Assembly: GCA_040394025.1 (NCBI GenBank)
Contig: JBEBSZ010000004.1
Coordinates: 38,492 to 102,491 of the forward strand
Direction of reading: 5' to 3'
Length of the DNA: 64,000 bases
Source of the DNA: Aeromicrobium sp.
GTDB lineage: Bacteria; Actinomycetota; Actinomycetes; Propionibacteriales; Nocardioidaceae
The translations under genes and the position numbers were made by a program. Positions 1-55,226 of this stretch are shown here, piece after piece; the stretch's first letter is position 1; the number at the start of each line of letters is the position of its first letter. Below the pieces are notes generated by a model. That model saw only the letters and a list, made by a program, of their open reading frames with translations. It made no database searches and was not told where the DNA came from.

Positions 1-545
1 CCAGCCGTATCCACAACCGCGGGTTTGACCGGTTTTGGAGACACCGTATTCGGTGTAGTCGGCCCAACCACCAATCCGTGTCACCGCCACTGATGCTGCC
101 TGAGCCTGCGGGATGATTACCGTGGTTACGTTGTCGCCATGCGGGTTGGCTAATGGCATGTTGACGTTCCCGTCAGCATCAACAATCGCACCCAACCCAT
201 CAAGGCTGGGCGTGAATCGCATGAGATAGCCGTCGTGGTTTGTGGCCCAGGCTGGGTTATCTGAATCATCACCATAGTGACGCAACAAACTACTCGTGCT
301 GGTTCCATCCGTTGTGGTTTGGGTGAGTCGTCTGCCGGCTGGATCTAACTCAAACGTCGTTGTCACACCGTCTTGGGTGATCGAGTGGGCTAGGTCATCA
401 TCAAAATAGGTGACCCCAATATCCCCTAGTGACGCTTCGGGAGCGTCGGTTGCTGGGATCAGGGTTTGGCGACCAAACCCGTCATACACATAATCCGTGC
501 CGTCACCCGCTTTGAGTGGCCTGTCATACCCGTCATAGGTGTAGG
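1..545. repeat. Copy A of the ~0.54 kb rhs core-end repeat (pairs with 1809-2350)
   Basis: Direct alignment by eye shows long identical runs, e.g. acaccgtattcggtgtagtc, gtcgccatgcgggttggctaatggcatgttgacgtt and ggcgtgaatcgcatgagatagccgtc. Similarity is lower (about 84% in the first 120 nt by my count) near position 1 and higher further in. Homology ends near 545. Confidence 0.9.
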
Positions 546-588
546 CAATAGCGCCCTTTGGATCAGTCATCGACACAATCTTCCTCAT
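1..588 (-). CDS. Orphan Rhs/YD-repeat C-terminal cassette (start in window, toxin tip runs off the left edge)
   Basis: The minus frame is open from ATG 588 (second in-frame ATG at 570, GGGGG Shine-Dalgarno-like run just upstream) to position 1. My translation is MRKIVSMTDPKGAIAYTYDGYDRPLKAGDGTDYVYDGFGRQTLIPATDAPEASLGDIGVTYFDDDLAHSITQDGVTTTFELDPAGRRLTQTTTDG...GGWADYTEYGVSKTGQTRGCGYGW. This parallels the last YD repeats and core of the full Rhs at 1809-2350. It is absent from the ORF track because it has no stop in the window. Confidence 0.75.
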   Translation of the reverse strand, partial: MRKIVSMTDPKGAIAYTYDGYDRPLKAGDGTDYVYDGFGRQTLIPATDAPEASLGDIGVTYFDDDLAHSITQDGVTTTFELDPAGRRLTQTTTDGTSTSSLLRHYGDDSDNPAWATNHDGYLMRFTPSLDGLGAIVDADGNVNMPLANPHGDNVTTVIIPQAQAASVAVTRIGGWADYTEYGVSKTGQTRGCGYGW

Positions 589-637: not shown

Positions 638-823
638 TCACTTCGTCTCGCCTAGCGCCTTCTTCTGAAAATAATGACTCCCCGCAAGTACGAAACCACC
701 AGCAAATACAACTGCTAGCCACCAAACCGCATCATGTGGATTGTAAAAATATGCAAGCAAAAAAGCAGTAATATTCGCCGCCAGTATCCACAACCACAAC
801 CAAGAATTAGCCAAAAGTGTCAC
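638..823 (-). CDS. Small 2-TM membrane protein, second candidate immunity/accessory protein
   Basis: The track ORF 638..883 starts at TTG 883 and overlaps the upstream ORF by 64 nt. An in-frame GTG at 823 instead forms a GTGA start/stop overlap with the upstream ORF (stop 822-820). This gives VTLLANSWLWLWILAANITAFLLAYFYNPHDAVWWLAVVFAGGFVLAGSHYFQKKALGETK, with two hydrophobic helices. Confidence 0.5.
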   Translation of the reverse strand: MTLLANSWLWLWILAANITAFLLAYFYNPHDAVWWLAVVFAGGFVLAGSHYFQKKALGETK

Positions 824-1197
824 CAATGCCCACCGATCTCCATGCCCATTGACCAACTTAGAAGCAACGAAATTGTGAACCAAACTACAAGGACGTTAGA
901 AGGCGACTCATTAAGTTCCCCTGCATCTTCATTTTCCCAAGTCCAAAGATAGGTTAAATACAAACCTGGTCGGCCTGCACTGCCTACGAGAACCATGACC
1001 AACACAGTTGACAAATACACGCTCGCGGGTAAACCAAAGCCGCTCGGGTTTGACGACTCAATTACTAGAACTGCGACTGGGAGAGAAAGCCAAATCAAAC
1101 TCACGGAAACCACTGCCTTAGCAGACAAACCTAGCTTGTTCTTTTCACGCCAAGTCAAGATCATCGCACCAAGTGACAGTCCGATCAAGAACGCCAT
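820..1197 (-). CDS. Polytopic (about 4-TM) membrane protein, candidate Rhs immunity protein
   Basis: 125 aa with hydrophobic segments MAFLIGLSLGAMILTW, AVVSVSLIWLSLPVAVLVI, VYLSTVLVMVLVGSA and VLVVWFTISLLLSW. ATG 1197 overlaps the last codons of rhs (stop 1185-1187), the usual position of an rhsI gene. Confidence 0.6.
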   Translation of the reverse strand: MAFLIGLSLGAMILTWREKNKLGLSAKAVVSVSLIWLSLPVAVLVIESSNPSGFGLPASVYLSTVLVMVLVGSAGRPGLYLTYLWTWENEDAGELNESPSNVLVVWFTISLLLSWSMGMEIGGHW

Positions 1198-4100
1198 GAA
1201 ATCCCCTGCTGCAATAAGTAGTAATTCGCAGAAACGCTACGTTGGTATGTACGAGATCGGCCTTGTTTCTTAGCACCTCTAACTACCATGCCGCTAACCC
1301 CGCCGTTTCGGAAGAAACGGACTGTCTTGGCTTTAGCTGCGCGTGCCGTACTCACCTTGACTGCTCCAGATTTTGATCGAGCTAACGGCCGAGTGTACTT
1401 AGCCACTCTTGCGCCTCCTAGCACAACGTTTGCTGCGGTACCCACCATCTGTTTTTTCGCCTTCTTCTTGGAGCCACCGGCCAAATACAATCCGGCAGAA
1501 GCAGCACCTAAAGCCGCCGAGGCAGCCGAACATTGTGGGCAGAACGGGATCAAGCCAATCAGACTACTTCCTTTCGATAACCATTTCGCTGCCCAAAGCG
1601 CGCGCTTTTTCCACTTTTTCTTTTTAGATTTTTGTCCGTCGAGGTCGAATTGGTTGATGGGGTCTTGGGGGTAGGTGTAGGCGGTGGTGTTACCGCCCGG
1701 GACGGGGTCCACGGAAGTGAATGCTCCGCGGACAGGGTTATAGAGCCTAGATCCCATGAGGGTCAGGCCGGCGGTTTCTGGCATTGTGGCGCGTTCGTGA
1801 CTGCCGAGCCAGCCGTATCCCCAACCCCGGGACTGGCCAGTCTTACTCACACCGTATTCGGTGTAGTCGACCCAACCACCAATCCGTGTCACAGGTTCTG
1901 ATGCTGCCTGCGCCTCCGGGATGATCACGGTGGTGACGTTGTCGCCATGCGGGTTGGCTAATGGCATGTTGACGTTACCGTCGGCATCAACAATGGCACC
2001 GAGCCCATCCAAGCTGGGCGTGAATCGCATGAGATAGCCGTCTTGGTTGGTGGCCCAGGCTGGGTTATCGGAATCGTCACCATACTGGCGTAGGAAACTC
2101 GTTGTGGTGGTTCCATCCGTTGTGGTTTGGGTGAGGCGTCTGCCGACTGGATCTAACCCAAAGGTCGTCGTCACACCGTCTTGGGTAATCGAATGAGCCA
2201 GATCGTCATCAAAATAGGTGACCCCAATATCCCCCAGTGATTCTTCGGGAGCGTCCGCGGCGGGGATCAGGGTTTGGCGACCAAACCCGTCATAGAGGTA
2301 ATCCGTGCCGTCACCTGCTTTGAGTGGCCTGTCATATCCGTCATAGTCGTGGGTTGTATCAGTATCGACACCGACCCAGAAACAATCCCCACTCGATGTG
2401 GACGAGGTCTTAAACCTCGTCCGGTTCCCGTTCTTATCAAAGGAATATTCCCGGCGAGTACACGGTGCTTGCGGGTCACCAGACGTGTCATTATCGAGCG
2501 TGATCCCCGTATCGGCGGCCGTGCGATCATCAACACGCGTCAGACGGCCAGCAAAATCATAAATATAACGTTTATCTGCTGCTAATCCCGCGCCTGCTGT
2601 TGGTGCTTCAATATCGGCCGGATCGGTGACTCCCGGAATACCTTCAAACACGGCACCAGCACCATTCCATTCTGCGATCACCCGGCCCGCAATGTCATAC
2701 TTACGTGACCAGGCCATCCACGGTTGATCGGCTAAGGGTTCACCAGGAATCCACGTGGTTTCCCCCGTCTCGGGGTCAATTTCTTCAGTCACGGGCGTGA
2801 TTTGTCCGGTGTAGGTCATCGTGTCGAGTTGGCCAACTTCATCGAATGTTGATTCAACCGCAAGCTTGCCGGGCATCGATTGACGTATCAGGTTCCCATC
2901 CGCGTCATAGGCTGCCTTATAGGTCAGGTTTCCGGCCCCATTGCCGCGTGAGACGACGAGTTTGGTGACCTGGCCGCGACGTTCCAGTTTCCCGTTCGCA
3001 TCTGGACCGTCATAGGTGTAGGTGACGGTGCCCTTCGGGTCAGTCACCTCAGAAATATTTCCTGCCGCATCATAAGCCGTAGTCGTCGTCGCGCCACCAG
3101 AGTTGGTGTAGGAGGTTTCACGCCCCCACCCGTCAAACGTGCGCGTAATCGCCGTACTCGTGCCCACGTTTTGTGTGGCAGTCACCAATCCCGTCGTGTC
3201 GTCATACACGCTCTTGGTGCCCGGGCGAGCTATCGAACCGGGGATGGTGGATGTTTCGGTGACCGTGTCAACGCGGTCTTTCGCGTCATAGGTCGTCGTT
3301 GTCGTACGCGAAACAGATACGCCACCCTTGGTAGCGGTTTCGGTCACGACAGTGGGTTGCCACCATTTGTTGTATTCATAGGTGGTTGCGGGCAAAGAAT
3401 CAGTGCCCCCACTGCCAGCAACTGTGCCGCCAGGACCCGTTTGGCAGACCATGCCTTCCCATTCGGGATGGTTCCCGCAATCGCTGATACTCGGATGCGG
3501 GCCGGTGGTGTAATAGAACGTTTTGGTTGTTCCCGGATCATTACTCGATGTTGCCAACGGTTGGCGCACCTCGATCACCCGGCCACGATCGTCATACCGT
3601 GTACGCGTGACGATATCGTTGGCCGTGTTCGGGAAAAACACTTCACGTTGAGCCACGGTGGTGGCTTGGCCCATATCCCAGCCCGACTTGTCACCGGACT
3701 CGATCGGGGCGTAGCCGGTGATGGTGTCGGTGATCATTCCTACGTCACTGCCACCAGCTTCGCGGCCGAAGAGTTGGGTGCGGGTCACCAAACCATAGGG
3801 TTTTTCGGTCGCGGGGTTCTTATTGCTGTTGGGTGCACCTTGATCATAGGTGTATTTCGTATGGGGGCGTAAACCTTGTAACGACACGAAATTGGCGATT
3901 GCTTCACGCCTGGGTTCGAGCACGCTTCGCACATTCGACTGGTCGTCATAGATTGTTTGGGTACTCCAGGCGTCTGCCTCGCCAGCGGTCATACCCGGAT
4001 TGTCGGTAGCGTGAGTGATGGCACCGGTGTCGAGTTCACGAATGACTCGGCCTTCACTGTCATAGTCTGTGGCATCAATCAGCCACCTGCCGGCACCATA

Positions 4101-7100
4101 GTTCGCGGTATTGACGGTATAGCCGTCATCGGTGGCGTATTGGATGGCCGCATACGTCCAATCATCGGATGTTGGGGCGGGCGTTGGGTTGGTGAGTGTG
4201 CCGTCCCAGGGATAGTCCGAACTCAAGACCGCATATCCGGCTTCCGGTGCACGGCTTTGATGCCAGTTAGCGATGGTCGATGCAGCAAGGTCCGGCATAT
4301 GGTTGCCGTCGCCTGCCGGGTCGATCCCGTAGTGGTACCGGGCTAATGCCACCGATCCCGGAGGTGGTGTGGCCTGATGGCTGGTGTTCCAACTTGAGGC
4401 ACCGACGGGGTCGCGGGTGATCATCGACAGTTTCTGATTGCCTTCTCCGGGTTGGTGCCAGAAACGGAACGGAGCAAGCCCGGCTGGAGTGATGACTGTG
4501 AGTCGACTGGTATCGGTTTGCCACCCATAGGTGGTGGTCAAACCAGAACGAACATCGGTCGCAGTAACCAACCGTTGCAGTGAATCGTAGGTATATGATG
4601 CCATCGATTCGGTCACGAACTTGTTGTCGCCAAGTTTCGCCGGATCCCACACGGTCGCTGACACCTGTTTGACTTGACCAGTCGCATCTCCGCCACTGTT
4701 TGATGTCCCATATTCAATGTCAAGGCTTGAACATCCGCGTGCGGTTGGCAACCACGCGCCGGTTATGGGGCAATCGGCCATGGTTTTACCTACCGGAACC
4801 GACACAATCTTGGTCACACGTTTACTATCGACACCGGTGCCCGGGAAATAGAAGGTGTGAGCCGCGTTCGTTTCAGATGGGTCGATAACGCCATGCGGAC
4901 GCCAGGTGTTGAGGGTGTTGGCATTCAGGGTTGCGGTCGGTGCCCACGTGGTGATCGTGCCATCAAACTCCGTCGCCTCAAACACCACACTGCTGGGTGT
5001 GCCGGTAGCAGTCTTAAGGACGAGCCGAATATCAGAGTCTTCGGTCTCATCAGTCATCGGCACATACACTGCTTGCCCACTGGTGCGGGCATGCGTTTTG
5101 CGAACCCCGCTTGGGTGGGCCCACACCAACACGGTTCCGTCTTCTGGGTCGGTCAGTGACACCGTGCCACTGGTGTGAGTCGCATCATCAAACACCCATT
5201 CGGCCATGCCTGAGAGCGCACCAAATTCAGCCGTCCAACCGGGACCAAAAATGCCGCGCACTTCATCATCGAGGCTGCCGTCACTGCCAAAGGACGAATA
5301 GGAGCGTGCCACACTCATTGTGGCGACATCAACATCGGTCTCATCAGTGACATATTCTCCAGTAAAGAGAGCCACCTGGGCCGCATCGGCAGAACCGTCA
5401 ACAGGGAACCCATCACCAAAAGCGCTCGGCAGACGTACCACCGTCGACGGTGCACTGGTCACGTCACAAATGTTCGAATTGCCAAGAACATGCACACACG
5501 CGCGGACTTCTAAGGTCACCGGCCGTCTGGCCAACGAAGAATCAAGATCGAGTGTAGAAAGGTTAAACGCACCAGAAACCCTCGTGAGCCCGTCGTTGTC
5601 AGCTAGCGTGAGAGTCCCGTGGTCTTGCCATTCAGCATTCTCATCACTTGCTCCGGCCAGACGGTATTGGATCGAGCCATGAAACGCCACAATCGATGTG
5701 GGCAGTAACCCGTTAACCGGAAGTGTTCCGGTTGACGTCACGCCGCTGGCCGGTTTATCAAGCGTGGCCAATCCAAAACCCATTTCGATCTTACGATCAG
5801 CAGACAGCACGCTCGGAGTCAGCGCGCGGGCAATAAACGTATGCGTACCGGCCGTATTAGGAATCGTGAAATTCTTCTTCGTTGTCTCTGGATCAGACGA
5901 CTGGGTGATCGCCCAATCAGCAATCTTTTTCTCACCGGAATACAACTCGATCTTGCTGGGAGCAGAAAAACCAGAACCGGCTGCCGTCACCGTACACGTA
6001 ATCTCATTATCGGGAAGCGGATCTGACCAGAAGCCGTGACCATAGGGGTCCGGGCACGAAATCACGGGCGCAGCAGGAACAGTCGCCGCAACACGCAAGG
6101 TCCGCCAATCTGACCATGAAGCATTCGAAAGTCCACGCTCATCGGTGGCTGCTGCACGCACATACACTTCGGTGTTATCTGTGAGTTCAGTCGTCGGTTG
6201 GCAGCGTCCAGAACTGCCCGAAGCGACCAAACTGCTTGTGCATTCAGCTAGCTTGGTACCGCTCGTGGCCGTTTTTGACGAGTGAATCTCAAATTTCAGT
6301 TTGTATTTACTTTGATCTGGATCCGAGGTAATCGAACGTAAAACAGGTTTAGTATCCGACACATAAATTGCTGTTTCGCCACCCGGTGGGGTGTAGGAAT
6401 AGCCGCCGTCAACCCCCGGCGCATTCGGTTTATTCGGAGGACGATTATAGGTAAACGTGATCATCGGATCATCGCTTGTTTCCGACGACCGGAAACGCTT
6501 CCAGCCAAAGTTATCGGTCTCGCTACTCGCCTTGAGACGAATACCCACCGTTTTCGCAGACTGTCCCGCCCACGTCTTGGCTTGACTCGTGATGTCGGCC
6601 GTCACCCGCCCAGCCTTACACGACGACGAGTAACCCTTCGCGACAGTCACCGTCTTCAACAACGTCGATGCTGAAGGCTGAGCACTCCACTTTGTGCTCG
6701 TTGACGCAGTACCAGCAGCATGAACCTGCATCGGTTTCGCCGTACACGACCACGAATGGTATTCATACACCGACACTTTGGCATTCACAATATCTTTACC
6801 GACCAAAGCATCAGTCTTAAAATTCAAGAAACTACGCAATACATCCGTGCCACCGTTATACGTACCCACCCGCAAATCCGTACTCGTGTGATAGGTCGTG
6901 TTTGGGTTCGCCTTCGACACCTCGGTATCAAAATTGGTAATGATGTTCACTGACGCATATGTCGGATCAACCGTGATTGGAAAGACCCGATCCTTCGCAG
7001 CAAACCAAGCCCGATCAACACTCAACCGCACTCGCGTGTCTTGACCTTCACCCACAAGTGTCATCGCCACATCAATCTCATTGACCCGGTTCAACGATTG

Positions 7101-8180
7101 CGGATCAACCTGACCATCCCAAGCACGAGGCGCTGTTAGTACCGACACCTCATCACCCGATTCGTCAACAAAACTGATACTGCCGTCCTTTAATGGTTGT
7201 GCCGTCAAGCCCGTCGTATCAATTCCGAACTCCCACCAAGGATCACCCGAAGAGTGACTGGTCAGCACCCGATCGCGGGCCGCATCGTTCATGATCTGAA
7301 CATCCCACTGGAAACCAGAACGACGACTCGACACCACCACATCCACACCAGCAGCAACATCCTCATAACGGGCTTGACCGCCCTTAATGACAGGTGCAGG
7401 CAACACCCCCGGCCACACCAAACCCACCGTGCGATCACCGGATTCAGCTACCTGAACCAAACTCGAACCCTTCACAGCACGCTCGCGAGTCTTGCCGAGA
7501 ACATCGTGATCTTCGATCTTCTTAGACTCACCAGACAGACCGGGCGTATCAACTTCGTTCGCCTCGCTGGTGCCATCGGGTCGTGAAAGTGGTTTCTCGA
7601 TCCGCGATGTCTCGTCGGTCGAAACATCTGGAGACTCAGTCACAGATTTCTCAGAATCTGAAACCGAAACCGACGTCACCATCGACACCGAACCTAGCTT
7701 CGAGCCGTCAGCGCCTTGCGACTTTCCTGCAACCTGCACACCCAACGGATGCGCCACAACACCAGCAGTACCACCCGCCCCTGCACGCATCGCTAAATCA
7801 ACATCCCTCCACTCGCCCGTATCCTCATCTCGAAAACGAATCTGTCCCTGATGCGCATCCGTCGTCAAGGTTCCATCGGGATTCACCCACGTCGAAGAAA
7901 ACTCATCACGCAAATCGGCCACCTCCACCGGCTTACCTGAAGCACGCGCCGAGACCTGGGCAGAAACCACGTCAGGAGCAACACCATCAGGCAACTGCTG
8001 TTGCCCAAACAGCAACCCATCTGTCGAGGAATCATCCGGCGTTTCCGAATCCAGATCCCGAGCAGCTATCGCTCCTGGCGACATCGACAGCAACACGGCC
8101 ACCGATACCCCAGTAATCAATAACCGCAGCCAAACAAACCGAGACACAACAAACCGAAACATCGCCGAACTCCCGATCAA
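1185..8180 (-). CDS. Secreted Rhs/YD-repeat polymorphic toxin (WapA-like), 2331 aa
   Basis: Sec-type signal (MFRFVVSRFVWLRLLITGVSVAVLLSMSPGAIA/ARD; ATG 8162 is a likelier start than TTG 8180). Then an acidic S/T-rich linker, a beta-sandwich/CBM-like module (tentatively DNRLRE-type, about aa 400-590) and Ig/FN3-like segments. Many YD repeats follow (YDDRGRVIEV, YDAKDRVDTV, FDGWGRETSY, YDAAGNISEVTDPKG, YDADGNLIRQ, YIYDFAGRLTRV, YSFDKNGNRTRF, YLYDGFGRQT). The Rhs core end reads RLYNPVRGAFTSVDPVPGG..YTYPQDPINQFDLDGQ, followed by a divergent 147-aa tip. Confidence 0.95.
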   Translation of the reverse strand: MIGSSAMFRFVVSRFVWLRLLITGVSVAVLLSMSPGAIAARDLDSETPDDSSTDGLLFGQQQLPDGVAPDVVSAQVSARASGKPVEVADLRDEFSSTWVNPDGTLTTDAHQGQIRFRDEDTGEWRDVDLAMRAGAGGTAGVVAHPLGVQVAGKSQGADGSKLGSVSMVTSVSVSDSEKSVTESPDVSTDETSRIEKPLSRPDGTSEANEVDTPGLSGESKKIEDHDVLGKTRERAVKGSSLVQVAESGDRTVGLVWPGVLPAPVIKGGQARYEDVAAGVDVVVSSRRSGFQWDVQIMNDAARDRVLTSHSSGDPWWEFGIDTTGLTAQPLKDGSISFVDESGDEVSVLTAPRAWDGQVDPQSLNRVNEIDVAMTLVGEGQDTRVRLSVDRAWFAAKDRVFPITVDPTYASVNIITNFDTEVSKANPNTTYHTSTDLRVGTYNGGTDVLRSFLNFKTDALVGKDIVNAKVSVYEYHSWSCTAKPMQVHAAGTASTSTKWSAQPSASTLLKTVTVAKGYSSSCKAGRVTADITSQAKTWAGQSAKTVGIRLKASSETDNFGWKRFRSSETSDDPMITFTYNRPPNKPNAPGVDGGYSYTPPGGETAIYVSDTKPVLRSITSDPDQSKYKLKFEIHSSKTATSGTKLAECTSSLVASGSSGRCQPTTELTDNTEVYVRAAATDERGLSNASWSDWRTLRVAATVPAAPVISCPDPYGHGFWSDPLPDNEITCTVTAAGSGFSAPSKIELYSGEKKIADWAITQSSDPETTKKNFTIPNTAGTHTFIARALTPSVLSADRKIEMGFGLATLDKPASGVTSTGTLPVNGLLPTSIVAFHGSIQYRLAGASDENAEWQDHGTLTLADNDGLTRVSGAFNLSTLDLDSSLARRPVTLEVRACVHVLGNSNICDVTSAPSTVVRLPSAFGDGFPVDGSADAAQVALFTGEYVTDETDVDVATMSVARSYSSFGSDGSLDDEVRGIFGPGWTAEFGALSGMAEWVFDDATHTSGTVSLTDPEDGTVLVWAHPSGVRKTHARTSGQAVYVPMTDETEDSDIRLVLKTATGTPSSVVFEATEFDGTITTWAPTATLNANTLNTWRPHGVIDPSETNAAHTFYFPGTGVDSKRVTKIVSVPVGKTMADCPITGAWLPTARGCSSLDIEYGTSNSGGDATGQVKQVSATVWDPAKLGDNKFVTESMASYTYDSLQRLVTATDVRSGLTTTYGWQTDTSRLTVITPAGLAPFRFWHQPGEGNQKLSMITRDPVGASSWNTSHQATPPPGSVALARYHYGIDPAGDGNHMPDLAASTIANWHQSRAPEAGYAVLSSDYPWDGTLTNPTPAPTSDDWTYAAIQYATDDGYTVNTANYGAGRWLIDATDYDSEGRVIRELDTGAITHATDNPGMTAGEADAWSTQTIYDDQSNVRSVLEPRREAIANFVSLQGLRPHTKYTYDQGAPNSNKNPATEKPYGLVTRTQLFGREAGGSDVGMITDTITGYAPIESGDKSGWDMGQATTVAQREVFFPNTANDIVTRTRYDDRGRVIEVRQPLATSSNDPGTTKTFYYTTGPHPSISDCGNHPEWEGMVCQTGPGGTVAGSGGTDSLPATTYEYNKWWQPTVVTETATKGGVSVSRTTTTTYDAKDRVDTVTETSTIPGSIARPGTKSVYDDTTGLVTATQNVGTSTAITRTFDGWGRETSYTNSGGATTTTAYDAAGNISEVTDPKGTVTYTYDGPDANGKLERRGQVTKLVVSRGNGAGNLTYKAAYDADGNLIRQSMPGKLAVESTFDEVGQLDTMTYTGQITPVTEEIDPETGETTWIPGEPLADQPWMAWSRKYDIAGRVIAEWNGAGAVFEGIPGVTDPADIEAPTAGAGLAADKRYIYDFAGRLTRVDDRTAADTGITLDNDTSGDPQAPCTRREYSFDKNGNRTRFKTSSTSSGDCFWVGVDTDTTHDYDGYDRPLKAGDGTDYLYDGFGRQTLIPAADAPEESLGDIGVTYFDDDLAHSITQDGVTTTFGLDPVGRRLTQTTTDGTTTTSFLRQYGDDSDNPAWATNQDGYLMRFTPSLDGLGAIVDADGNVNMPLANPHGDNVTTVIIPEAQAASEPVTRIGGWVDYTEYGVSKTGQSRGWGYGWLGSHERATMPETAGLTLMGSRLYNPVRGAFTSVDPVPGGNTTAYTYPQDPINQFDLDGQKSKKKKWKKRALWAAKWLSKGSSLIGLIPFCPQCSAASAALGAASAGLYLAGGSKKKAKKQMVGTAANVVLGGARVAKYTRPLARSKSGAVKVSTARAAKAKTVRFFRNGGVSGMVVRGAKKQGRSRTYQRSVSANYYLLQQGISWRS
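1809..2350. repeat. Copy B of the rhs core-end repeat (inside the main rhs gene)
   Basis: Same alignment as for copy A, in the same orientation (direct repeat), about 1.26 kb apart. Confidence 0.9.
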
Positions 8181-8409: not shown

Positions 8410-9030
8410 TCATAGCTTCAACTCATAAGTCATCAGTTCATGGCTTAATGCTCCGGGCGCGTATAAGAAAACAATGTCAGTGGAACCGAGCATACGCGAG
8501 GTGACGTTACGGATAGCCTCGACATCGATAGCACCTTCGCCAGCCTCTGTATGGACCGCCACAAGGAGTTCTTCGTAATTTGGTGCTGGACTAATCGACA
8601 CCACATGAGCATCTTCCGGAAAGGCATCGCGGGCCTTCGCGAGATTCTTCGAAAGGTCGCCAAAGCCAAACGGAACAACCTTAGAAACTATTTCTACGTC
8701 TTGGTACTGGGCTCTTAAATCGTCAAGAACTGAATTGGCATACGAGTCCGGATCGCTCTCAAACACCACGACCAACTCATCTTTACGAACGATGTAGGTG
8801 AGATAACCATCGAGTTCCCGGGCATCACGTAACTCCGAGAGGTTATCGGCCACATTCTGAGCTGCTCTTCCATCTTGTTCCGAAGGGAATTGTTCCAACG
8901 TACGAAGGTCATCGATAGTGATAATTCGATAATCATCTCCAGCGTTCTCATCCGAATAGGCCGTTTGGAATGACCCCGCGGACACAAGGCCAAGCGCTAA
9001 AACAAAAACTATGGCCAATGATGCACGCAT
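8410..9030 (-). CDS. Secreted hypothetical protein (signal peptide), no family recognised
   Basis: The N-terminus MRASLAIVFVLALGLVSAGSFQTAYS is signal-peptide-like. The rest is acidic and soluble-looking. It sits directly upstream of rhs on the same strand. Confidence 0.6.
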   Translation of the reverse strand: MRASLAIVFVLALGLVSAGSFQTAYSDENAGDDYRIITIDDLRTLEQFPSEQDGRAAQNVADNLSELRDARELDGYLTYIVRKDELVVVFESDPDSYANSVLDDLRAQYQDVEIVSKVVPFGFGDLSKNLAKARDAFPEDAHVVSISPAPNYEELLVAVHTEAGEGAIDVEAIRNVTSRMLGSTDIVFLYAPGALSHELMTYELKL

Positions 9031-9466: not shown

Positions 9467-10639
9467 TCAGTAACTTGGCTGGCTTGGATCAATCTGATTC
9501 ACCCAAGCGACAATTCCGCCGCCAACGTGAACCGCATCAGAATAACCGGCACCCTTCAGCACGGCAAGACACTCAGCAGAACGCGCGCCAGACTTACAAC
9601 TGAGCACAACCTGCGTATCTTGGCTGAGGTTTTCAAAAGCCTTACCTGAGAGCACTTCACCCTTAGGAATCAAAATCGAACCAGGAATCTGATTGATCTC
9701 GTACTCGTTCGGTTCCCGCACGTCAACAAGCACAAAGTCACGTTCGCCTGCGTCACGTTCCTTAAGCCACTGTTCCAAGGTCGAGACCGAAATAGTCGAG
9801 TCAGCGGCAGCTTCGAGAGCTTCCTCACTCACCAAACCGCAGAAAGCGTCATAGTCATCCATGAGCTTCGTTGGAAGTTCACCAGCCGGATCACGACGAA
9901 TATTGAGTGTCGAATAACGCATTTCGAGTGCGTCATAGACCATCAAACGACCAATCAGCGGTTCACCAATACCGGTGAGCAATTTGATCGCTTCGGTCAC
10001 CATGATCGAGCCAATGGACGAGCAGAGAACGCCTAGAACTCCACCCTCAGCACAGGATGGAACCATTCCCGGCGGTGGTGGCTCCGGGTAGAGGTCACGG
10101 TATTGCGGGCCTTCTTGCGCCCAAAACACCGACACTTGACCTTCGAAGCGATAAATCGAACCCCAAACGTACGGCTTACCGAGAATCACGGCAGCATCAT
10201 TTACGAGATAGCGCGTGGCGAAGTTATCGGTGCCATCAAGGATCAGATCGTACTGGCTGAAAATATCGAGAACGTTGTCGTTATCGAGGCGCTCGTTATG
10301 GGTGATGACCTTGACATGCGGGTTAATCTCAGCAACCGAAGCAGCCGCACTCTCCACTTTAGGTACACCAATATCGGATTGTCCGTGGATCACTTGGCGT
10401 TGCAGATTGGATTCATCCACCACATCGTCATCAATAATTCCAAGTGTGCCGACGCCGGCAGCAGCCAAGTACAGCAATGCGGGACTGCCAAGGCCACCCG
10501 CTCCGATAATCAAAACTTTGGCGTTCTTGAGTCGCTTTTGGCCCGTCATCCCAACGTCAGGAATGATGAGGTGTCGGCTATAGCGACGAACCTCGTCTAG
10601 GGTCAGTTCTTCTGCTGGCTCAACGAGTGGTGCAACCAC
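9467..10639 (-). CDS. moeZ: MoeZ/MoeB-type adenylyltransferase-sulfurtransferase with C-terminal rhodanese domain
   Basis: RYSRHLIIPDVGMTGQKRLKNAKVLIIGAGGLGSPALLYLAAAGVGTLGIIDDDVVDESNLQRQVIHG, plus a rhodanese-like end (VLSCKSGARS). GTG 10639 is preceded by GGAG and gives about 390 aa. The track ATG 10762 is probably an over-extension. Confidence 0.9.
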   Translation of the reverse strand: MVAPLVEPAEELTLDEVRRYSRHLIIPDVGMTGQKRLKNAKVLIIGAGGLGSPALLYLAAAGVGTLGIIDDDVVDESNLQRQVIHGQSDIGVPKVESAAASVAEINPHVKVITHNERLDNDNVLDIFSQYDLILDGTDNFATRYLVNDAAVILGKPYVWGSIYRFEGQVSVFWAQEGPQYRDLYPEPPPPGMVPSCAEGGVLGVLCSSIGSIMVTEAIKLLTGIGEPLIGRLMVYDALEMRYSTLNIRRDPAGELPTKLMDDYDAFCGLVSEEALEAAADSTISVSTLEQWLKERDAGERDFVLVDVREPNEYEINQIPGSILIPKGEVLSGKAFENLSQDTQVVLSCKSGARSAECLAVLKGAGYSDAVHVGGGIVAWVNQIDPSQPSY

Positions 10640-10842
10640 GAAAACTCCTCGATCTGGGTTGAAGCATGCAATGCGCTCCTCACTAGAGGCAACGCAGCCA
10701 CGTTCTCTATTGTTCCCCTCACCACAAATCGGTCGAACTTCCGTCCACTCCTTGGACAACAACTTTCGAGGTTGAAGTCGAATTCAGCGTAAATACCCCC
10801 ATCCTCCCCTATTTAGTTGATGCGAGGACTACCCTTTAGTCT

Positions 10843-12564: not shown

Positions 12565-13998
12565 CTGACTACTTTTACTGAGCTGGGCGTTATCGAGCCC
12601 ATTACCGACGCATTAAGCTCTGTCGGCATCCAAGAAGCTTTCCCAATCCAAGAGATGACCCTCTCGGTTGCCTTGGCTGGCACTGACCTCATCGGTCAGG
12701 CCCGGACGGGCACAGGCAAGACCCTCGCCTTTTCAATTCCTGTCATTCAACGCATTGCGGCAAACCCTGATCTTGAGGTTCGCAAGAACGGCAAACCACA
12801 GGCTCTGATCGTTGCCCCAACTCGCGAACTCGCGATCCAAGTTGCAGGTGATGTGGAGACTGCGGCGAAGAATCTCGATGTCCGATCGCTCACCATTTAT
12901 GGCGGTGTTCCTTATGAACCGCAGCTCGAAGCACTCGAGTCCGGCGTCGACATTGTCATTGGCACACCGGGCCGAGTATTAGATCTGGTGAATCGTGGTG
13001 CGCTGGAATTGACCCACGTCCATGCGCTCGTCCTGGATGAGGCCGACGAAATGCTTGATCTGGGTTTCTTACCTGATGTGGAAGCAATCTTGGCTCGCAC
13101 GCCTGCTTCACGACAGACGATGTTGTTTTCGGCAACAATGCCATCTGCAATCGTGACATTGGCACGTCAGCACATGCATCAGGCAATGAATATTCGTGCC
13201 GAATCAACCGAGTCGAACCAGACTGTCCCAGCCACACAACAGTTTGTCTGGCAAGCACACGAATTGGATAAGCCAGAAATTGTCGCCCGCATTTTGCAGG
13301 CAAATGATGTCGGCCGGGTCGTCGTATTTACCCGCACGAAGCGTGCCGCGCAAAGGGTTGCCGACGATTTATCGGAGCGTGGTTTCAAGTCTTCGCCTTT
13401 GCATGGCGATATGGCTCAAAAGGCTCGCGAGAAAGCGCTCCAAGGTTTCCGTGACGGCAAAGTCAAGATTCTGGTAGCGACCGATGTCGCAGCCCGAGGC
13501 ATCGACGTTGCGGGCATCACGCATGTCATCAACTACACCTGTCCTGAAGACGACAAGACCTACGTTCACCGGATCGGACGCACCGGTCGAGCTGGTGCAA
13601 GCGGCGTAGCGGTCACTTTCGTGGACTGGGCCGATTTGCAGCGGTGGAAACTCATCAACAAGGCGCTCGATTTGCCGTTCGATGAGCCACAAGAAACCTA
13701 TTCAACCTCTGATCACTTGTTTGCTGATTTAGGTATCAGCAAAGACGTGACTGGCCGGATCGTATCGAAGAAGCCACAGGGTTCAGGCGACGGTGGACAA
13801 TCGAAATCCGAACAGAGGTCTGGTTCGCAGCAACGCCAACGGGGGCGGTCAGGCGGTCAGGCGTCAAAACAGAACGCTGGTCAGCAGAATCGTGGAGACA
13901 AGCAACAAAACCCATCTGGTGGTGACCAGCCTCGTCGCCAACGCCAACGTCGTCGTACCCGCAGTGGAAAACCTGTGTCAGCTCCGGAAACCGAGTAA
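12565..13998 (+). CDS. rhlE: DEAD-box ATP-dependent RNA helicase (RhlE-like) with basic RG/Q-rich tail
   Basis: Motifs AQARTGTGKT, PTRELA, VLDEADEMLD, SAT and HRIGRTGRAG are present. The Q motif (TFTELGVIEPITDALSSVGIQEAFPIQE) lies in frame upstream of the track ATG 12655. The 5' end is uncertain because there is no ATG, GTG or TTG between the TAG at 12520 and 12655. CTG 12565 is given as a provisional start. Confidence 0.9.
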   Translation: MTTFTELGVIEPITDALSSVGIQEAFPIQEMTLSVALAGTDLIGQARTGTGKTLAFSIPVIQRIAANPDLEVRKNGKPQALIVAPTRELAIQVAGDVETAAKNLDVRSLTIYGGVPYEPQLEALESGVDIVIGTPGRVLDLVNRGALELTHVHALVLDEADEMLDLGFLPDVEAILARTPASRQTMLFSATMPSAIVTLARQHMHQAMNIRAESTESNQTVPATQQFVWQAHELDKPEIVARILQANDVGRVVVFTRTKRAAQRVADDLSERGFKSSPLHGDMAQKAREKALQGFRDGKVKILVATDVAARGIDVAGITHVINYTCPEDDKTYVHRIGRTGRAGASGVAVTFVDWADLQRWKLINKALDLPFDEPQETYSTSDHLFADLGISKDVTGRIVSKKPQGSGDGGQSKSEQRSGSQQRQRGRSGGQASKQNAGQQNRGDKQQNPSGGDQPRRQRQRRRTRSGKPVSAPETE

Positions 13999-42377: not shown

Positions 42378-44063
42378 TCACCCGGACGCCTTGAGCGCCC
42401 ATTCTCGGATCGTAGCAATGCGGTACGAGAGTTGCTCGGTTGTTGCTTGGGCTGCTGGGGGGCCACCACATGATGAGCGGAGCCGTGCATGCGTGACACC
42501 GTGTGGAGCGCCGGTGCGGTGATGCCATGCAGCGACGAGCGCATTGAGTTCTCGGCGTAACTCCGAGCGGCGCGCGTGCAGCACATCTGCTTCGGCTTCA
42601 CGAGTGGCTGTGGCAGTCTTCTTTTTCTTGCCTCGTGCTGCCCGCAACAATTCGGCCACTTGGTCAGGTTCCAATAGACCTGGAATCCCGAGAAAGTCGA
42701 GTTCTTCGGCATCGTCGCTGATGTGATCGTATCCGAATTCACCGCCGTCGTAGACCACACGGTCAAAGGACGCTTCACTTCCTAGAGCAGCGAAATCGCC
42801 GTCACCGTCTGGCACATCGCGTTCGGCGTTTGCGCGCGCCAAAAGTTCGGCTTCAGCGGCGAAGAGATTGTCCGCGTCTTTGATGGGTCGACCGATGACA
42901 TGATCTCGTTCGGCCTCAAGTTCAGCAGCGTGTTTTAAAAGCACGGGAACACTCGGCAGGAAAATCGACGCGGTTTCACCCTTACGTCGAGCCCGCACAA
43001 ACCGCCCCACCGCTTGGGCAAAGAACAGGGGTGTGGTGGTGGTTGTGGCGTAGACACCCACAGCCAATCGCGGCACATCGACGCCTTCAGATACCATGCG
43101 CACGGCGACCATCCAAGGAGATGAGCCCTCGCTGAATTCGGTAATTTTCTTGCTTGATCCAGCTTCATCAGACAGCACCAAGGTCGGTTCTGCACCGGTC
43201 AAAGCACGGAGCATCGCAGCGTAAGCTCGTGCTTGAGTCTGGTCACTAGCGATGACCAGTCCCCCAGCATCGTTGATGTCGCGGCGAACTTCCAATAGTC
43301 GAGTGTGCGCAGCTTCCAATACAGCCGGCATCCATGAGCCCTTGGGGTCGAGTGCGGTACGCAGCGCTTGGGCGGCTAAATCTCTGGTGAGTGGCTCGCC
43401 AAGCCTTGCGGCGATTTCGTCGCCAGCACGGGTCCGCCACTGCATTTCGCCCGAGTAAGCCATGAACAGCACTGGTCGAACTACGCCGTCACGCAGCGCG
43501 TCACCGTAGCCGTAAGAGTGATCGCTCAAACTCATCACAGTTCCGTCACCTTGAGGCGCATACGTGACGAACGGGATGGGGTTGTCATCCGACCGAAACG
43601 GCGTGCCGGTGAGAGCGAGTCGTCGGCGTGCCGGTTCGCATGCTTCCTGCACTGCGTCCCCCCAACTCAGCGCATCGGCAGCATGGTGGATTTCATCCAG
43701 CACCACGAGCGTGCGGTTGCGTTCGATCCGCACACGATGTCCGGTGGGGTTCGCTGCCAAGCCTGCATAGGTCACGGCATAACCATCGAATCCTTGCGGC
43801 AAAGCACCGGTGAGTTCAGGAACGATGGAAATACCCATCGCAGCCGCCGATTCGGCCCACTGAACTTTAAGATGTTCGGTCGGCGCAACGATGACAACTC
43901 GATCGATAATCCGACGATGAAAAAGGTCGGCTGCGATCGTCAATGCGAAGGTAGTTTTACCTGCGCCAGGCGTGGCAACAGCGAGAAAATCACGCGGCTG
44001 GGCGGCCGTGTACTTCTCGAATGCTGCGCGCTGCCAGGCTCTAAGGGACTGGCTGCGGCTCAC
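42378..44063 (-). CDS. DEAD/DEAH-box (SF2, ERCC3/Ssl2-like) helicase
   Basis: Walker A ATPGAGKTTFA, DExH VLDEIHHA and motif VI-like QAVGRFVRA. 4-nt overlap with the upstream DUF3039 gene. Confidence 0.85.
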   Translation of the reverse strand: MSRSQSLRAWQRAAFEKYTAAQPRDFLAVATPGAGKTTFALTIAADLFHRRIIDRVVIVAPTEHLKVQWAESAAAMGISIVPELTGALPQGFDGYAVTYAGLAANPTGHRVRIERNRTLVVLDEIHHAADALSWGDAVQEACEPARRRLALTGTPFRSDDNPIPFVTYAPQGDGTVMSLSDHSYGYGDALRDGVVRPVLFMAYSGEMQWRTRAGDEIAARLGEPLTRDLAAQALRTALDPKGSWMPAVLEAAHTRLLEVRRDINDAGGLVIASDQTQARAYAAMLRALTGAEPTLVLSDEAGSSKKITEFSEGSSPWMVAVRMVSEGVDVPRLAVGVYATTTTTPLFFAQAVGRFVRARRKGETASIFLPSVPVLLKHAAELEAERDHVIGRPIKDADNLFAAEAELLARANAERDVPDGDGDFAALGSEASFDRVVYDGGEFGYDHISDDAEELDFLGIPGLLEPDQVAELLRAARGKKKKTATATREAEADVLHARRSELRRELNALVAAWHHRTGAPHGVTHARLRSSCGGPPAAQATTEQLSYRIATIREWALKASG

Positions 44064-52924: not shown

Positions 52925-53862
52925 CAGAGTTTCACCTTCGTAATTCGGCTGAGCCAAAATCCGCCAAGCGCATAAAATACGGCAGCTACACCCAACAAGA
53001 CATAACCTGCAAAGGTCGTGAAGAGAGGAGCCATAAAGTCAGAGTTAATGACACCAAACAGTACGCCGACGCCAATTGGTAACGCCATCAAAATGATTGC
53101 AGAAGCTTTTCCTTCCGCAGCTAGTGATTGAATCTTCAGGCGTAATTCGTTTCTTTCGGCAATCGTCTCAGTGACGCGATCAAGAATTTCACTCAACCGG
53201 CCGCCAGATTCACGTTGTATAGCAACTGCATCAGTGACCCACTTAAAGTCGTCACTTTCCATGCGTTCCGCAGTTTCATGCATAGCATTTACCATGTCGC
53301 GCCCTAGCCGCGCTTCGTTCACAATTCGCGCTAACTCGTCACCCATCGGTGGTTCCATTTCCGTGGCCACGTTCGCCATAGCTGTCGGAACGTTCATGCC
53401 GGATTTTAGAGCAGAGCTCAGAAGAGTCATCGCATCGCCCATTTGCTCGCTGAATTTCTCTTTTCGCTTGGTTGTGCGCCACGAGACAAAGAAACGAACA
53501 AGAAATGGAGACCCAATTGCGGCAAGCAGCGACAGAAAAAGGCTACGGGTCACTACTTGAGTAATCATGAATGCGCTCATCGCAACAAGCAAAGTGATGG
53601 CAACCATTGAAGTTCCACCAATTTTGATCCCTGCTTGCGCAAGATCGTTTTCTGAGTAGCCCTTGAGACCGAAACGATCCATTACCCGATCGATCAGATC
53701 AAATACCGGGGTGCTGGACTTTCCTGAAGCGCTCTCGTTCAATTCCTCAGTCCGCATTTGCTCGGATCTAAGGTTAACTAAATACGGTTGAAACAGGACA
53801 AAAACAAACAGGACGAGTGCAGCAACAATCGCAATAATGCCGATACCCAAGGGGGATGTCAT
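52924..53862 (-). CDS. tadB: Tad pilus platform protein TadB (T2SS F family)
   Basis: T2SSF-like (FSEQMGDAMTLLSSALKSGMNVPTAM). Confidence 0.85.
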   Translation of the reverse strand: MTSPLGIGIIAIVAALVLFVFVLFQPYLVNLRSEQMRTEELNESASGKSSTPVFDLIDRVMDRFGLKGYSENDLAQAGIKIGGTSMVAITLLVAMSAFMITQVVTRSLFLSLLAAIGSPFLVRFFVSWRTTKRKEKFSEQMGDAMTLLSSALKSGMNVPTAMANVATEMEPPMGDELARIVNEARLGRDMVNAMHETAERMESDDFKWVTDAVAIQRESGGRLSEILDRVTETIAERNELRLKIQSLAAEGKASAIILMALPIGVGVLFGVINSDFMAPLFTTFAGYVLLGVAAVFYALGGFWLSRITKVKL

Positions 53863-55226
53863 ACAGGCTCCTCTGTTCTATTGGCTAGCAGATGAGGCGG
53901 AACTTTGACTCCACGTTCTTCGAGGACTGCGACCAAATGCTCGCCACTTCCCACAGCTTCAACTTTTCCGAGCGGCGTGCCATCAACGTCGTAGCCAGCA
54001 CCGAAGTCGAAGCGGTATAGATCGTGCAAAACTGGCTCGTCATTCTTAATACCGGTAAGTTCAGTGACGTGAGTGATTCGGCGAGAGCCATCGCGCAAGC
54101 GCGTGATCTGGACGATCATGTCGACTGCCGAACCAATCTGTTCACGAATAGCACGCAGCGGCAGATCCATGCCAGCCATCAGCACGAGTGTTTCCAAACG
54201 CGCAACACAATCTCGAGGTGAGTTAGCGTGTAAGGTGGAAATTGACCCATCGTGGCCCGTGTTCATTGCTTGAAGCATGTCGAGCGCTTCGCCCGAACGA
54301 CATTCGCCGATGACCACACGGTCCGGGCGCATACGCAAAGAGTTCTTCACGAGGTCACGAATAGTGACCTCACCACGACCTTCAATATTGGCCGGACGAC
54401 TTTCCAACTGAACCACGTGTTCCTGCTGAAGCTTTAGTTCGATCGCATCCTCGATAGTGACAATGCGCTCGTCTTCAGGGATGAAGGAACTCAACACGTT
54501 CAAAAGCGTTGTCTTACCGGTACCAGTACCACCTGAAACCAAAATATTGAGTTGGCCTTCGACACAAAGTTTTAAGAGCTCAGCGAGATCAGGAGTCAAA
54601 GAACCAAAGCGAATCAAGTCATCAACGCCCCAGGGCGTTTGGGAAAACTTACGGATGGTGAGTGACGACCCTCGCACTGCTAGCGGCGGAATGATGGCAT
54701 TAACACGAGAACCGTCTTCGAGACGCGCGTCAACCAGTGGCGATGACTCATCAATGCGCCGACCAACCTTGCCAACGATACGTTCAATGACTCGACGTAA
54801 CTGCTCTTCCGAGGTGAAAGCCACCGGAGCTAACTGAAGCTTTCCAGCTTTCTCAATGAAAATCTGTTTGGGATGATTTACCATAATTTCGGTAACATCT
54901 GGATCGTCCAAAAGCCGTTGAATAGGACCCAAGCCCAGTGCATCGTCTTCAATCTCACGAATCAGCGCAGCGCGTTCACGCGCACCTAATTGCACATGTT
55001 CTTCTTGCAGAACTTGTTCGAGCTCAGAACGCACGAACTCACGTAATTGTGAATCGTTGATCGAAGAATCATTGATTCGCGCTCCGATACGTCGGAATAA
55101 AGCAACAACAGCACGTTCTTTGAGATCGTCAAGTACCTTGGAACGCTCTAAGACGACTGCTGGCGCCGAAGTCTTTCCTTCAGCACCAGCCTTTTCTATC
55201 GCCGCAAGACGATCCGAAATACTCAT
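53859..55226 (-). CDS. tadA: CpaF/TadA secretion ATPase
   Basis: Walker A SGGTGTGKTTLLN, IVTIEDAIEL, GHDGSISTLHANS. Confidence 0.95.
   Translation of the reverse strand: MSISDRLAAIEKAGAEGKTSAPAVVLERSKVLDDLKERAVVALFRRIGARINDSSINDSQLREFVRSELEQVLQEEHVQLGARERAALIREIEDDALGLGPIQRLLDDPDVTEIMVNHPKQIFIEKAGKLQLAPVAFTSEEQLRRVIERIVGKVGRRIDESSPLVDARLEDGSRVNAIIPPLAVRGSSLTIRKFSQTPWGVDDLIRFGSLTPDLAELLKLCVEGQLNILVSGGTGTGKTTLLNVLSSFIPEDERIVTIEDAIELKLQQEHVVQLESRPANIEGRGEVTIRDLVKNSLRMRPDRVVIGECRSGEALDMLQAMNTGHDGSISTLHANSPRDCVARLETLVLMAGMDLPLRAIREQIGSAVDMIVQITRLRDGSRRITHVTELTGIKNDEPVLHDLYRFDFGAGYDVDGTPLGKVEAVGSGEHLVAVLEERGVKVPPHLLANRTEEPV

Follow-up and report, generated by a model that had tools for sequence, protein, structure and literature searches.

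A recurring polycationic Rhs tip domain of Actinomycetota, encoded next to small membrane proteins, as a candidate membrane-active toxin

Sec-dependent Rhs/YD toxins of the WapA type combine a signal peptide, a YD/Rhs shell, a polymorphic C-terminal tip and a downstream immunity gene, and the WapA tips that have been characterized are tRNases with soluble immunity proteins. To our knowledge, Rhs toxins of Actinomycetota are almost unstudied, and we know of few families of non-enzymatic, membrane-targeting polymorphic toxins (Tse5, Tse4, Ssp4/6, TspA, EsxX, TelE and the ionophore toxins of contact-dependent inhibition, CDI). Here, we analyzed a stretch of 64,000 nucleotides from Aeromicrobium sp. 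(GCA_040394025.1, contig JBEBSZ010000004.1, positions 38,492 to 102,491 of the forward strand; hereafter, the window), which encodes an Rhs protein of the same layout as WapA, whereas its 148-amino acid (aa) tip carries no enzymatic signature and its candidate immunity proteins are membrane-bound. Judged from its sequence, this tip is a member of a real toxin-domain family that recurs on Rhs scaffolds and counts at least 20 sequences, and we favor a reading in which it would act on membranes.

The 149-aa Rhs tip of Tse5 from Pseudomonas aeruginosa (Tse5-CT) has no predicted enzyme activity, needs an Asp-dependent C-terminal cleavage, inserts into lipid layers unaided, opens ion-selective pores and depolarizes cells, and is neutralized by Tsi5, a protein with two transmembrane segments (2 TM) (PMC9637101, PMC10684867). 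The window tip resembles it as an Rhs tip of almost the same length (148 against ~149 aa) that follows an aspartyl-protease core end, has no enzymatic domain, combines amphipathic with transmembrane-type helices and is encoded directly ahead of a small, putatively protective, integral membrane protein. Whereas Tse5 depends on a type VI secretion system (T6SS) and PAAR in a Gram-negative host, the window protein is actinobacterial and carries a predicted Sec signal and a DNRLRE/CBM96 domain, and its tip, which is far more cationic and has a conserved pair of Cys residues, precedes two open reading frames (ORFs) for membrane proteins (4 TM and 2 TM) instead of a single one for a 2-TM protein. 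A profile of 16 family tips searched against PDB chains did not match Tse5 residues 1169-1317, in a set that may not include Tse5-CT, and the likeness is a functional analogy only.

Among Gram-positive bacteria, EsxX, TelE and TspA are non-enzymatic, membrane-depolarizing glycine-zipper toxins on the LXG scaffold of type VIIb secretion (T7SSb; PMC12744356). Their small-residue helix, their neutralization from outside by polytopic membrane proteins and their toxin part without a Pfam domain find likely counterparts at our locus, but they are built on an LXG/T7SS scaffold with a strict (G/A/S)xxxGxxxG motif, whereas the window tip sits on an Rhs scaffold and the motif is absent from it. EsxX additionally needs the soluble ExiAB pair against cytoplasmic toxicity (PMC12744356); no equivalent was seen at the window locus, as would fit a toxin that Sec exports within an Rhs shell. 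The ionophore toxins of CDI (CdiA-CT groups 1-6) dissipate the membrane potential and have immunity proteins that are ~30% identical within a group (PMC11630599). They, too, are polymorphic C-terminal toxins with integral-membrane immunity and a modular build in which a conserved helical part is combined with a variable one, but they are proteobacterial, fold, by prediction, into bundles of five helices and have a separate N-terminal entry domain, whereas only three helices were modeled for the window tip, with moderate confidence, and its conserved module is the N-terminal one. Tde1 of Agrobacterium (PMC10240207), finally, is a secreted antibacterial effector with a small-residue helix that contacts the target membrane, but its zipper helps to translocate a DNase domain, whereas the window tip carries no enzymatic cargo. 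Most likely, the tip resembles Tse5-CT, EsxX and TelE in mode without being detectably homologous to them.

Sequence, frame and family of the tip

The end of the Rhs core, the tip and the parts of the tip were delimited as follows (AF2, AlphaFold2; pLDDT, predicted local distance difference test).

1632 to 1787, minus strand: end of the Rhs-associated core with the Asp motifs SVDPVPGG ... DPINQFDLDGQ (TIGR03696)
1188 to 1631, minus strand: 148-aa C-terminal tip (composition and family alignment)
1557 to 1631, minus strand: tip residues 1-25, cationic amphipathic helix 1 (AF2 helix 2-25, pLDDT ~72; column conservation)
1530 to 1547, minus strand: tip residues 29-34, P-F-C-P-Q-C loop (alignments)
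1473 to 1532, minus strand: tip residues 34-53, uncharged small-residue helix 2 (AF2 helix 32-51, pLDDT 71-81)
1413 to 1460, minus strand: tip residues 58-73, helix 3 (AF2 helix 55-84; column conservation)
1188 to 1406, minus strand: tip residues 76-148, polycationic C-terminal half, net charge +17 (AF2 pLDDT <50)

The tip starts with KSKKKKWKKR right after ...YTYPQDPINQFDLDGQ and ends at a stop codon at 1185-1187. It contains 21 Lys and 12 Arg and lacks Asp, Glu and His altogether, so that its net charge is +33, and its only two Cys residues (C31 and C34) lie in a CPQC motif. A preliminary description of the locus, made from the letters alone, had reported this motif, about 21 Lys and 12 Arg and the complete lack of Asp, Glu and His, all of which our recount reproduced exactly; the feature that it had placed at 1185-1628 with ~147 aa is likewise present, with an upper bound one codon further on (1631) and a length of 148 aa. 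Given the frequency of Asp, Glu and His in the rest of the protein (together 13.9%), the chance of finding none in 148 residues is 2.4e-10. Charge is distributed unevenly along the tip (+10 over residues 1-21, 0 over 22-53, +5 over 54-62, +1 over 63-75 and +17 over 76-148), leaving a 32-residue stretch without charge (residues 22-53) between flanks of +10 and +5. Just upstream, TIGR03696 matched Rhs residues 2132-2183 with an E-value of 2e-07 and 31.4 bits, marginally under the 32.5-bit cut-off; the Asp motifs of the core end can be read directly in the window protein and are common to the relatives. Because this motif is present, and by analogy with D1141/D1164 of Tse5 (PMC10684867), we presume the core end to be an autoproteolytic release site that would be cut after Q2183, just ahead of K1 of the tip.

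Independent sequence data speak to the reading frame. Two short Logan contigs from other sequencing runs (L001 and L002) agreed with the window at every aligned base. L001 runs from the core end through the complete tip and the two ORFs behind it into the beginning of the next Rhs fragment; L002 enters the tip at C34 and then likewise covers the two membrane ORFs and the beginning of the orphan fragment. Furthermore, a contig of an Actinomycetales metagenome-assembled genome (MAG; L013, GCA_012513165.1) encodes a tip that is also 148 aa long, 74% identical, free of indels and devoid of Asp, Glu and His. Comparing the two tips yielded a ratio of nonsynonymous to synonymous substitution rates (dN/dS) of 0.20 at a dS of ~1.0 (Nei-Gojobori), indicating purifying selection along the whole tip. 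As independent assemblies are identical and an indel-free homologue with 74% identity shows such constraint, the reading frame is genuine, and the frameshift artefact that the preliminary description had named as a way in which it could be wrong is not what we observed.

The tip recurs on other Rhs scaffolds, as the preliminary description had suggested checking. An exhaustive phmmer scan of 1.84 billion cluster representatives returned 15 proteins at E <= 1e-3 (best, 9.5e-26), a lower bound that is biased to fragments, since the library was clustered at 50% identity and long Rhs proteins group by their shell. A word-indexed protein search was nearly blind, with 0 matches for the tip and 1 for the 16-tip profile, because low-complexity words saturate its candidate list. 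In 13 of the 15 relatives, the region of similarity lies directly behind an Rhs core-end motif (DP[IV]Nx2-3DL[DN]G or DPxGL); the remaining two are a frameshifted copy and a stand-alone tip. Further loci came from a pattern scan of GTDB species genomes (Actinomadura, two in Spirillospora, two in Saccharothrix, Blastococcus and an Actinomycetota MAG), and a look-up of immunity homologues added the Actinomycetales MAG contig as well as intact copies of the closest library match. An organism was named for 12 relatives, and 12/12 belong to Actinomycetota. No match was obtained with tblastn of the tip against plasmids or in scans of metagenome contigs for the family. The gene call of the best library match (P0001; L010, 167-1234) runs over a frameshift in tip helix 1, and intact, in-frame versions of this tip are found on L016 and L018 together with a 134-aa 4-TM immunity gene. 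P0015 (353 aa) has what looks like the N-terminal part of a ThiF/E1-like protein (GLGGTGS), behind which a short Rhs core-end motif and a family tip are fused, an arrangement that an orphan tip may have created by recombining into an unrelated gene.

Upon aligning 20 tips, we found W7, S22, P29, C34, S38, G42, A46, Y49, G53, A58, T65, G72, G73 and G111 to be kept in at least 85% of them, and none of these columns is acidic, basic or His. C34, G42 and T65 are invariant (20/20), P29 is present in 19/20, and every member has a partner Cys upstream of C34, at a distance of either 3 residues (PFCxxC) or 5 residues (CPLxQC); the pair may form a metal site or a disulfide. The core of the family is a module of ~75 aa that consists of a Trp/Lys amphipathic helix, the Cys pair and two small-residue helices. 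Behind it, a C-terminal half of the pattern GGxxG ... GRGR/GRSR ... aromatic is common to the sub-group of the window and the Actinomadura-type sub-group, with the motifs G111-x2-G114 and G124-R125 common to sub-groups I and II, while in other members this half is swapped for unrelated basic tails or, in one member, for a helical tail that is acidic; P0016 stops soon behind helix 3 and so does without it. Net charge ranges from +12 to +33 in 18/20 tips. Distant members carry His (16 in P0004) and a few acidic residues; the absence of Asp, Glu and His, which the preliminary description had put at the center of its argument, thus holds for the window lineage only (the window tip and its closest homologue), whereas the trait of the family as a whole is to be very basic with very few acidic residues.

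The conserved positions line up along the modeled helices. AF2 run with the family alignment gave helices at residues 2-25, 32-51 and 55-84 with block-mean pLDDT values of about 60-80, while a run on the single sequence was poor (pLDDT 49). In helix 1, the conserved residues are W7-K-K, [A/F/L]11, A15, L18, S19 and S22, of which W7, [A/F/L]11, A15, L18 and S22 recur at i/i+3-4 and form one face opposite a Lys/Arg face. Helix 2 carries a conserved stripe, C34-S38-G42-A46, plus Y49 and G53, and helix 3 a conserved face of A58, Q61-L62, T65-A66 and G72-G73. The glycine-zipper-like register that had been noted in the hydrophobic core did not stand up to a composition control, as the 4 small-residue stripes observed in the window tip are no more than its Ala/Gly/Ser-rich composition yields (shuffles, 3.2 +/- 2.0; P = 0.40), and strict zipper motifs occur in the relatives only sporadically and at non-homologous positions. 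What counts, as read from the alignment, is the family-wide conservation of C34-S38-G42-A46, in which S38-G42-A46 makes a small-xxx-small pattern only.

No named toxin domain emerged, in agreement with the preliminary description, which had not recognized any and had considered an enzymatic active site hard to reconcile with the composition. The tip had no match in Pfam, NCBIfam or the PDB sequences, and the last 1004 aa of the Rhs protein had none in the PDB sequences by phmmer; the 16-tip profile found no Pfam family, and among all PDB chain sequences (E <= 10) it gave only a chance match to uS17 at E 0.14. Foldseek of the tip model against the PDB returned chance helical matches only (E >= 2.8) and no bundle. 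The conserved columns contain no catalytic Asp/Glu/His/Lys/Arg/Ser/Cys constellation of the kind found in enzymatic Rhs tips, and no enzymatic profile matched. We dismissed a redox enzyme, which had been considered as a CxxC at a helix N-terminus resembles a thioredoxin motif (P0004 has CGPC), since there was no thioredoxin-fold match and many family members carry C-x4-C. One family member matched Phage_holin_3_6 below threshold (E 0.025), which we took as noise rather than as a sign of a holin. The tip domain, the membrane-protein family described below and the 61-aa partner are all without a name in Pfam and NCBIfam, and we found no paper on any of the three.

Membrane proteins encoded downstream of the tip

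Three further features lie downstream of the tip.

820 to 1197, minus strand: 125-aa 4-TM protein, candidate cognate immunity protein (hydropathy; gene call on independent contigs)
638 to 823, minus strand: 61-aa 2-TM protein (hydropathy; gene call on L001/L002)
1 to 588, minus strand: orphan Rhs C-terminal fragment that starts with MRKIVSM and runs off the window edge (similarity to the main gene)

The ATG of the 125-aa ORF overlaps the stop codon of the Rhs gene, and the GTG of the 61-aa ORF in turn overlaps the TGA of the 125-aa ORF. That the downstream genes encode membrane proteins, as had been stated from the letters alone, was borne out by hydropathy (4 TM and 2 TM) and by their being called on independent contigs. 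In the 125-aa protein, TM3 is succeeded by a G-R-P-G motif and then by an acidic loop of net charge -4. This arrangement recurs: in 12 of the 15 distinct genomic contexts of the tips, the next gene encodes a membrane protein, and in 9/15 (the window, L013, L016/18, L003, L005, L006, L020, L022 and L008) it belongs to one unnamed family, here called G-R-P, with the layout TM1, a basic loop (LTxR[D/E]), TM2, TM3, G-R-P, an acidic stretch and TM4. The acidic stretch holds 5-7 Asp/Glu residues in 5/6 of the 4-TM homologues examined, and the L008 protein is a 2-TM version of the family with ARPG. In the contexts L004 and L021, the protein has 2 TM and a soluble C-terminal domain. The 125-aa protein and its Actinomadura counterpart are 28% identical over 76 residues (pairwise E 0.001), and a six-sequence immunity profile retrieved 16 proteins, all annotated as 'hypothetical' and none with a Pfam domain, whose named sources are Actinomadura, Blastococcus and Actinomycetales.

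Cognate toxin-immunity pairs usually show faster divergence on the immunity side. The 125-aa ORF is 46% identical to P0040 with a dN/dS of 0.45, while the adjacent tips are 74% identical, so that, on these sequences, toxin and candidate immunity protein are seen to diverge together. The 61-aa ORF is present in L013-L015 with 70% identity, the same length and the same GTGA overlap (L013, 918-1100), and its product may act as a further immunity protein or have an accessory role in the membrane. It is better conserved (70%) than the 4-TM immunity candidate (46%), and it has no gene call in the MAG.

The orphan fragment is 90% identical at the aa level and 88% at the nucleotide level to Rhs residues 1944-2124 (window 2353-1809). 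On L013, in a region syntenic with the window (1172-2817), the equivalent orphan carries a tip that is also polycationic but not the same, having a Gly/Ala helix rich in Cys (YLAVGVCAATAGAGCAAATAIAIGVSA), and is followed by a soluble 174-aa ORF and then by an insertion sequence (IS) transposase. Aligned to the tip family with hhalign, this second tip scored a probability of 1.6%, having only the KKWxKR start in common; KKWxKR just after the presumed cleavage site may be a feature related to the shell or to release.

Mode of action and competing readings

With a confidence somewhat above even, we read the tip as a non-enzymatic, membrane-inserting and depolarizing toxin of a Sec-exported Rhs protein, against which the 125-aa protein, and probably the 61-aa protein, would protect the producer. 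We favor this reading because the tip combines a Trp-bearing cationic helix with uncharged small-residue helices and basic flanks, has no enzymatic fold or residues and is paired with putative immunity proteins that are polytopic membrane proteins. A membrane-active effector, as had already been proposed in the preliminary description, is also the reading best supported by the family data, with conserved residues that are non-catalytic and downstream genes for conserved integral membrane proteins; that the tip forms a pore is what we infer from the sequences.

In the mechanism that we propose, Sec would export the Rhs protein, its shell would enclose the tip, and the aspartyl-protease core end (SVDP...DLDGQ) would free the tip just before K1. 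The freed 16-kDa peptide (+33) would bind anionic envelope and membrane lipids via its Trp/Lys helix 1, while helix 2, capped by the Cys pair, and helix 3 would form a tightly packed small-residue hairpin with C34-S38-G42-A46 and A58-L62-T65-A66-G72-G73 as its faces. This hairpin would then insert, probably aided by the inside-negative potential pulling on the cationic flanks, and self-associate into an ion-conducting structure, such that neighboring bacteria would lose their membrane potential or proton-motive force. In the producer, insertion or assembly would be blocked by the 125-aa 4-TM protein, whose translation is coupled to that of the toxin, and probably by the 61-aa 2-TM protein as well, possibly with the G-R-P motif and the acidic loop binding or blocking the cationic toxin in or at the membrane. 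Conserved synteny shows the pairing of the tip with its candidate immunity protein, whereas the mode of neutralization is suggested by the motifs and charges.

Several observations weigh against this mechanism. The AF2 model obtained with the alignment is weak overall (pLDDT 60; predicted TM-score, pTM, 0.35) and gives no confidence past residue 85. The candidate membrane helices are Ala/Gly/Ser-rich, with Kyte-Doolittle values of <=1.3 over 18 residues, the loop joining helices 2 and 3 bears +3 to +5, which would be costly to carry across a bilayer, and a regular-expression search of the window tip found no strict glycine zipper ((G/A/S)xxxGxxxG or GxxxGxxx(G/S/T), PMC12744356). Residues 76-148, variable and with a charge of +17, look more like a nucleic-acid or ribosome binder than like a membrane domain. 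Nor do all genomic contexts conform, as the next ORF encodes a non-membrane protein with a signal-peptide-like N-terminus in L007 and L009, L023 lacks a convincing same-strand downstream ORF, and in L011/L012 a soluble acidic protein follows the truncated P0016 tip. Because of the modest hydrophobicity of the helices, the positive charge between helices 2 and 3 and a variable polycationic tail that makes up half of the tip, two other readings, a receptor-dependent toxin and a two-module toxin, stay alive.

Class II bacteriocins use Man-PTS, UppP or RseP as targets. CDI ionophore toxins likewise need membrane-protein receptors, namely AcrB, SecY, YciB, PuuP or DtpA (PMC11630599), and the helical module of our tip could by the same token dock on an integral membrane protein or a lipid-linked precursor and jam or open its target. 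Tip helices that are too weakly hydrophobic for easy spontaneous insertion would then be less of a problem, the strong conservation of the helix faces could reflect contact with another protein, and membrane immunity proteins fit such a receptor-dependent toxin as well as they fit a pore. We nevertheless think this unlikely, as the tip has no recognizable receptor-binding domain, its conserved faces consist of small residues that are typical of helix-helix packing rather than of a specific partner, and a charge this strongly positive suggests that it would bind lipids or the envelope in general.

Alternatively, the tip may be a two-module toxin, with the N-terminal three-helix module (~75 aa) as an entry device for a polycationic half that binds nucleic acids or ribosomes in the cytoplasm without catalysis. 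The N-terminal module is indeed the only part found in all members, with C-terminal halves that are unrelated or missing, a swap pattern that recalls the modular entry domains of CdiA-CT (PMC11630599), and translocation of the DNase Tde1 depends on a glycine-zipper segment (PMC10240207). Residues 76-148 are rich in Lys, Arg, Ala and Ser, and the weak, non-significant match of the family profile to uS17 points in the same direction. That match is at chance level, however, and the C-terminal half matched no nucleic-acid-binding family; P0016 keeps the N-terminal module only and still stands behind an Rhs core end, and the cognate partners encoded downstream are small and polytopic in the membrane rather than soluble binders of the cytoplasm, all of which makes this reading quite improbable to us. 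In a related and similarly improbable version, the three-helix module would by itself thread the polycationic tail over the membrane, driven by the membrane potential, and the tail would poison ribosomes or nucleic acids; the Cys pair would possibly gate the module, disulfide-locked outside and reduced on entry, and the small membrane proteins would be gatekeepers that stop the threading step. If true, such self-translocation would be a new entry-and-kill mechanism for contact-dependent or secreted toxins of Gram-positive bacteria, beyond another pore former.

That the tip is not a functional toxin at all but a frameshifted, decaying tail or low-complexity junk, as its Lys/Ala/Ser/Gly-rich composition, the empty word-indexed search and the frameshift in the related copy L010 might suggest, is hardly credible given the identical independent assemblies, the 148-aa indel-free homologue with its dN/dS of 0.20, the 15 significant relatives with a common motif set, the conservation of the two coupled downstream genes and the existence of intact versions of the L010 tip (L016 and L018).

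The Rhs gene, its surroundings and implications

The remaining parts of the Rhs gene are as follows.

1185 to 8180, minus strand: Rhs/YD-repeat polymorphic toxin gene (RHS_repeat, YD_repeat_2x, DUF6531, DNRLRE and Rhs_assc_core matches)
8064 to 8162, minus strand: predicted Sec signal peptide, with MFRFVVSRFVWLRLLITGVSVAVLLSMSPGAIA followed by AR at the predicted boundary (read off the translation)
6450 to 6929, minus strand: DNRLRE (CBM96-type) domain, residues 418-577 (NF033679; E 7.2e-22, 78 bits against a cut-off of 34)

Counted from TTG 8180, the ORF has 2331 aa; ATG 8162 (MFRFVV...) is the likelier start codon. Matches to PF05593 RHS_repeat (25.3 bits; cut-off, 22) and to TIGR01643 YD_repeat_2x (29.3 bits; cut-off, 15.8) were above threshold, whereas the DUF6531 match was below it (21.7 bits vs 24.1), and no LXG or WXG domain was matched in Pfam or NCBIfam. 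The relative P0012 combines CBM96 with an Rhs shell as well. With its YD/Rhs repeats, a core end before the tip, a variable tip followed by a cognate gene and an orphan fragment, the window protein belongs fully to the Rhs type of polymorphic-toxin system. The GC content falls from 56% in the shell and core to 51% in the tip and 47% downstream, which is the usual signature of an exchangeable cassette of Rhs tip and immunity gene.

Immediately upstream of the Rhs gene, the window encodes a 206-aa acidic protein with a signal-peptide-like N-terminus (8410-9030, minus strand), which belongs to no NCBIfam family, matches Pfam GGDEF_2 below threshold only and could be an accessory protein to the Rhs system. 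Long plus-strand ORFs that overlap the Rhs gene, such as 1288-1674 over the tip, are by-products of composition and not genes. Elsewhere, the window encodes MoeZ (9467-10762, minus strand), a DEAD-box helicase (12655-13998, plus strand), a protein with a partial Dnd-restriction-like N-terminus (42378-44063, minus strand) and a TadA-type 'helicase/secretion neighbourhood' ATPase (53859-55226, minus strand). Markers such as these suit a chromosome of Actinomycetota, in line with the sources of the tip's relatives. The window proteins sit in clusters of only 1-3 members, indicating that the source organism is rarely sampled.

What is new here is an unnamed toxin-domain family with its motif signature, a G-R-P membrane-immunity family and a conserved 61-aa membrane protein that is co-encoded with them. 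No concept is overturned, as the type of system and the likely mode of action have precedents, and the tip is a new domain family within a known type of toxin. Both the tip family and the G-R-P family, whose members, like the 61-aa protein, are now 'hypothetical' and have no Pfam model, can be used for annotating actinobacterial genomes. Beyond annotation, the system lends itself to studying how a Sec-exported Rhs shell passes a very cationic peptide to a Gram-positive membrane.

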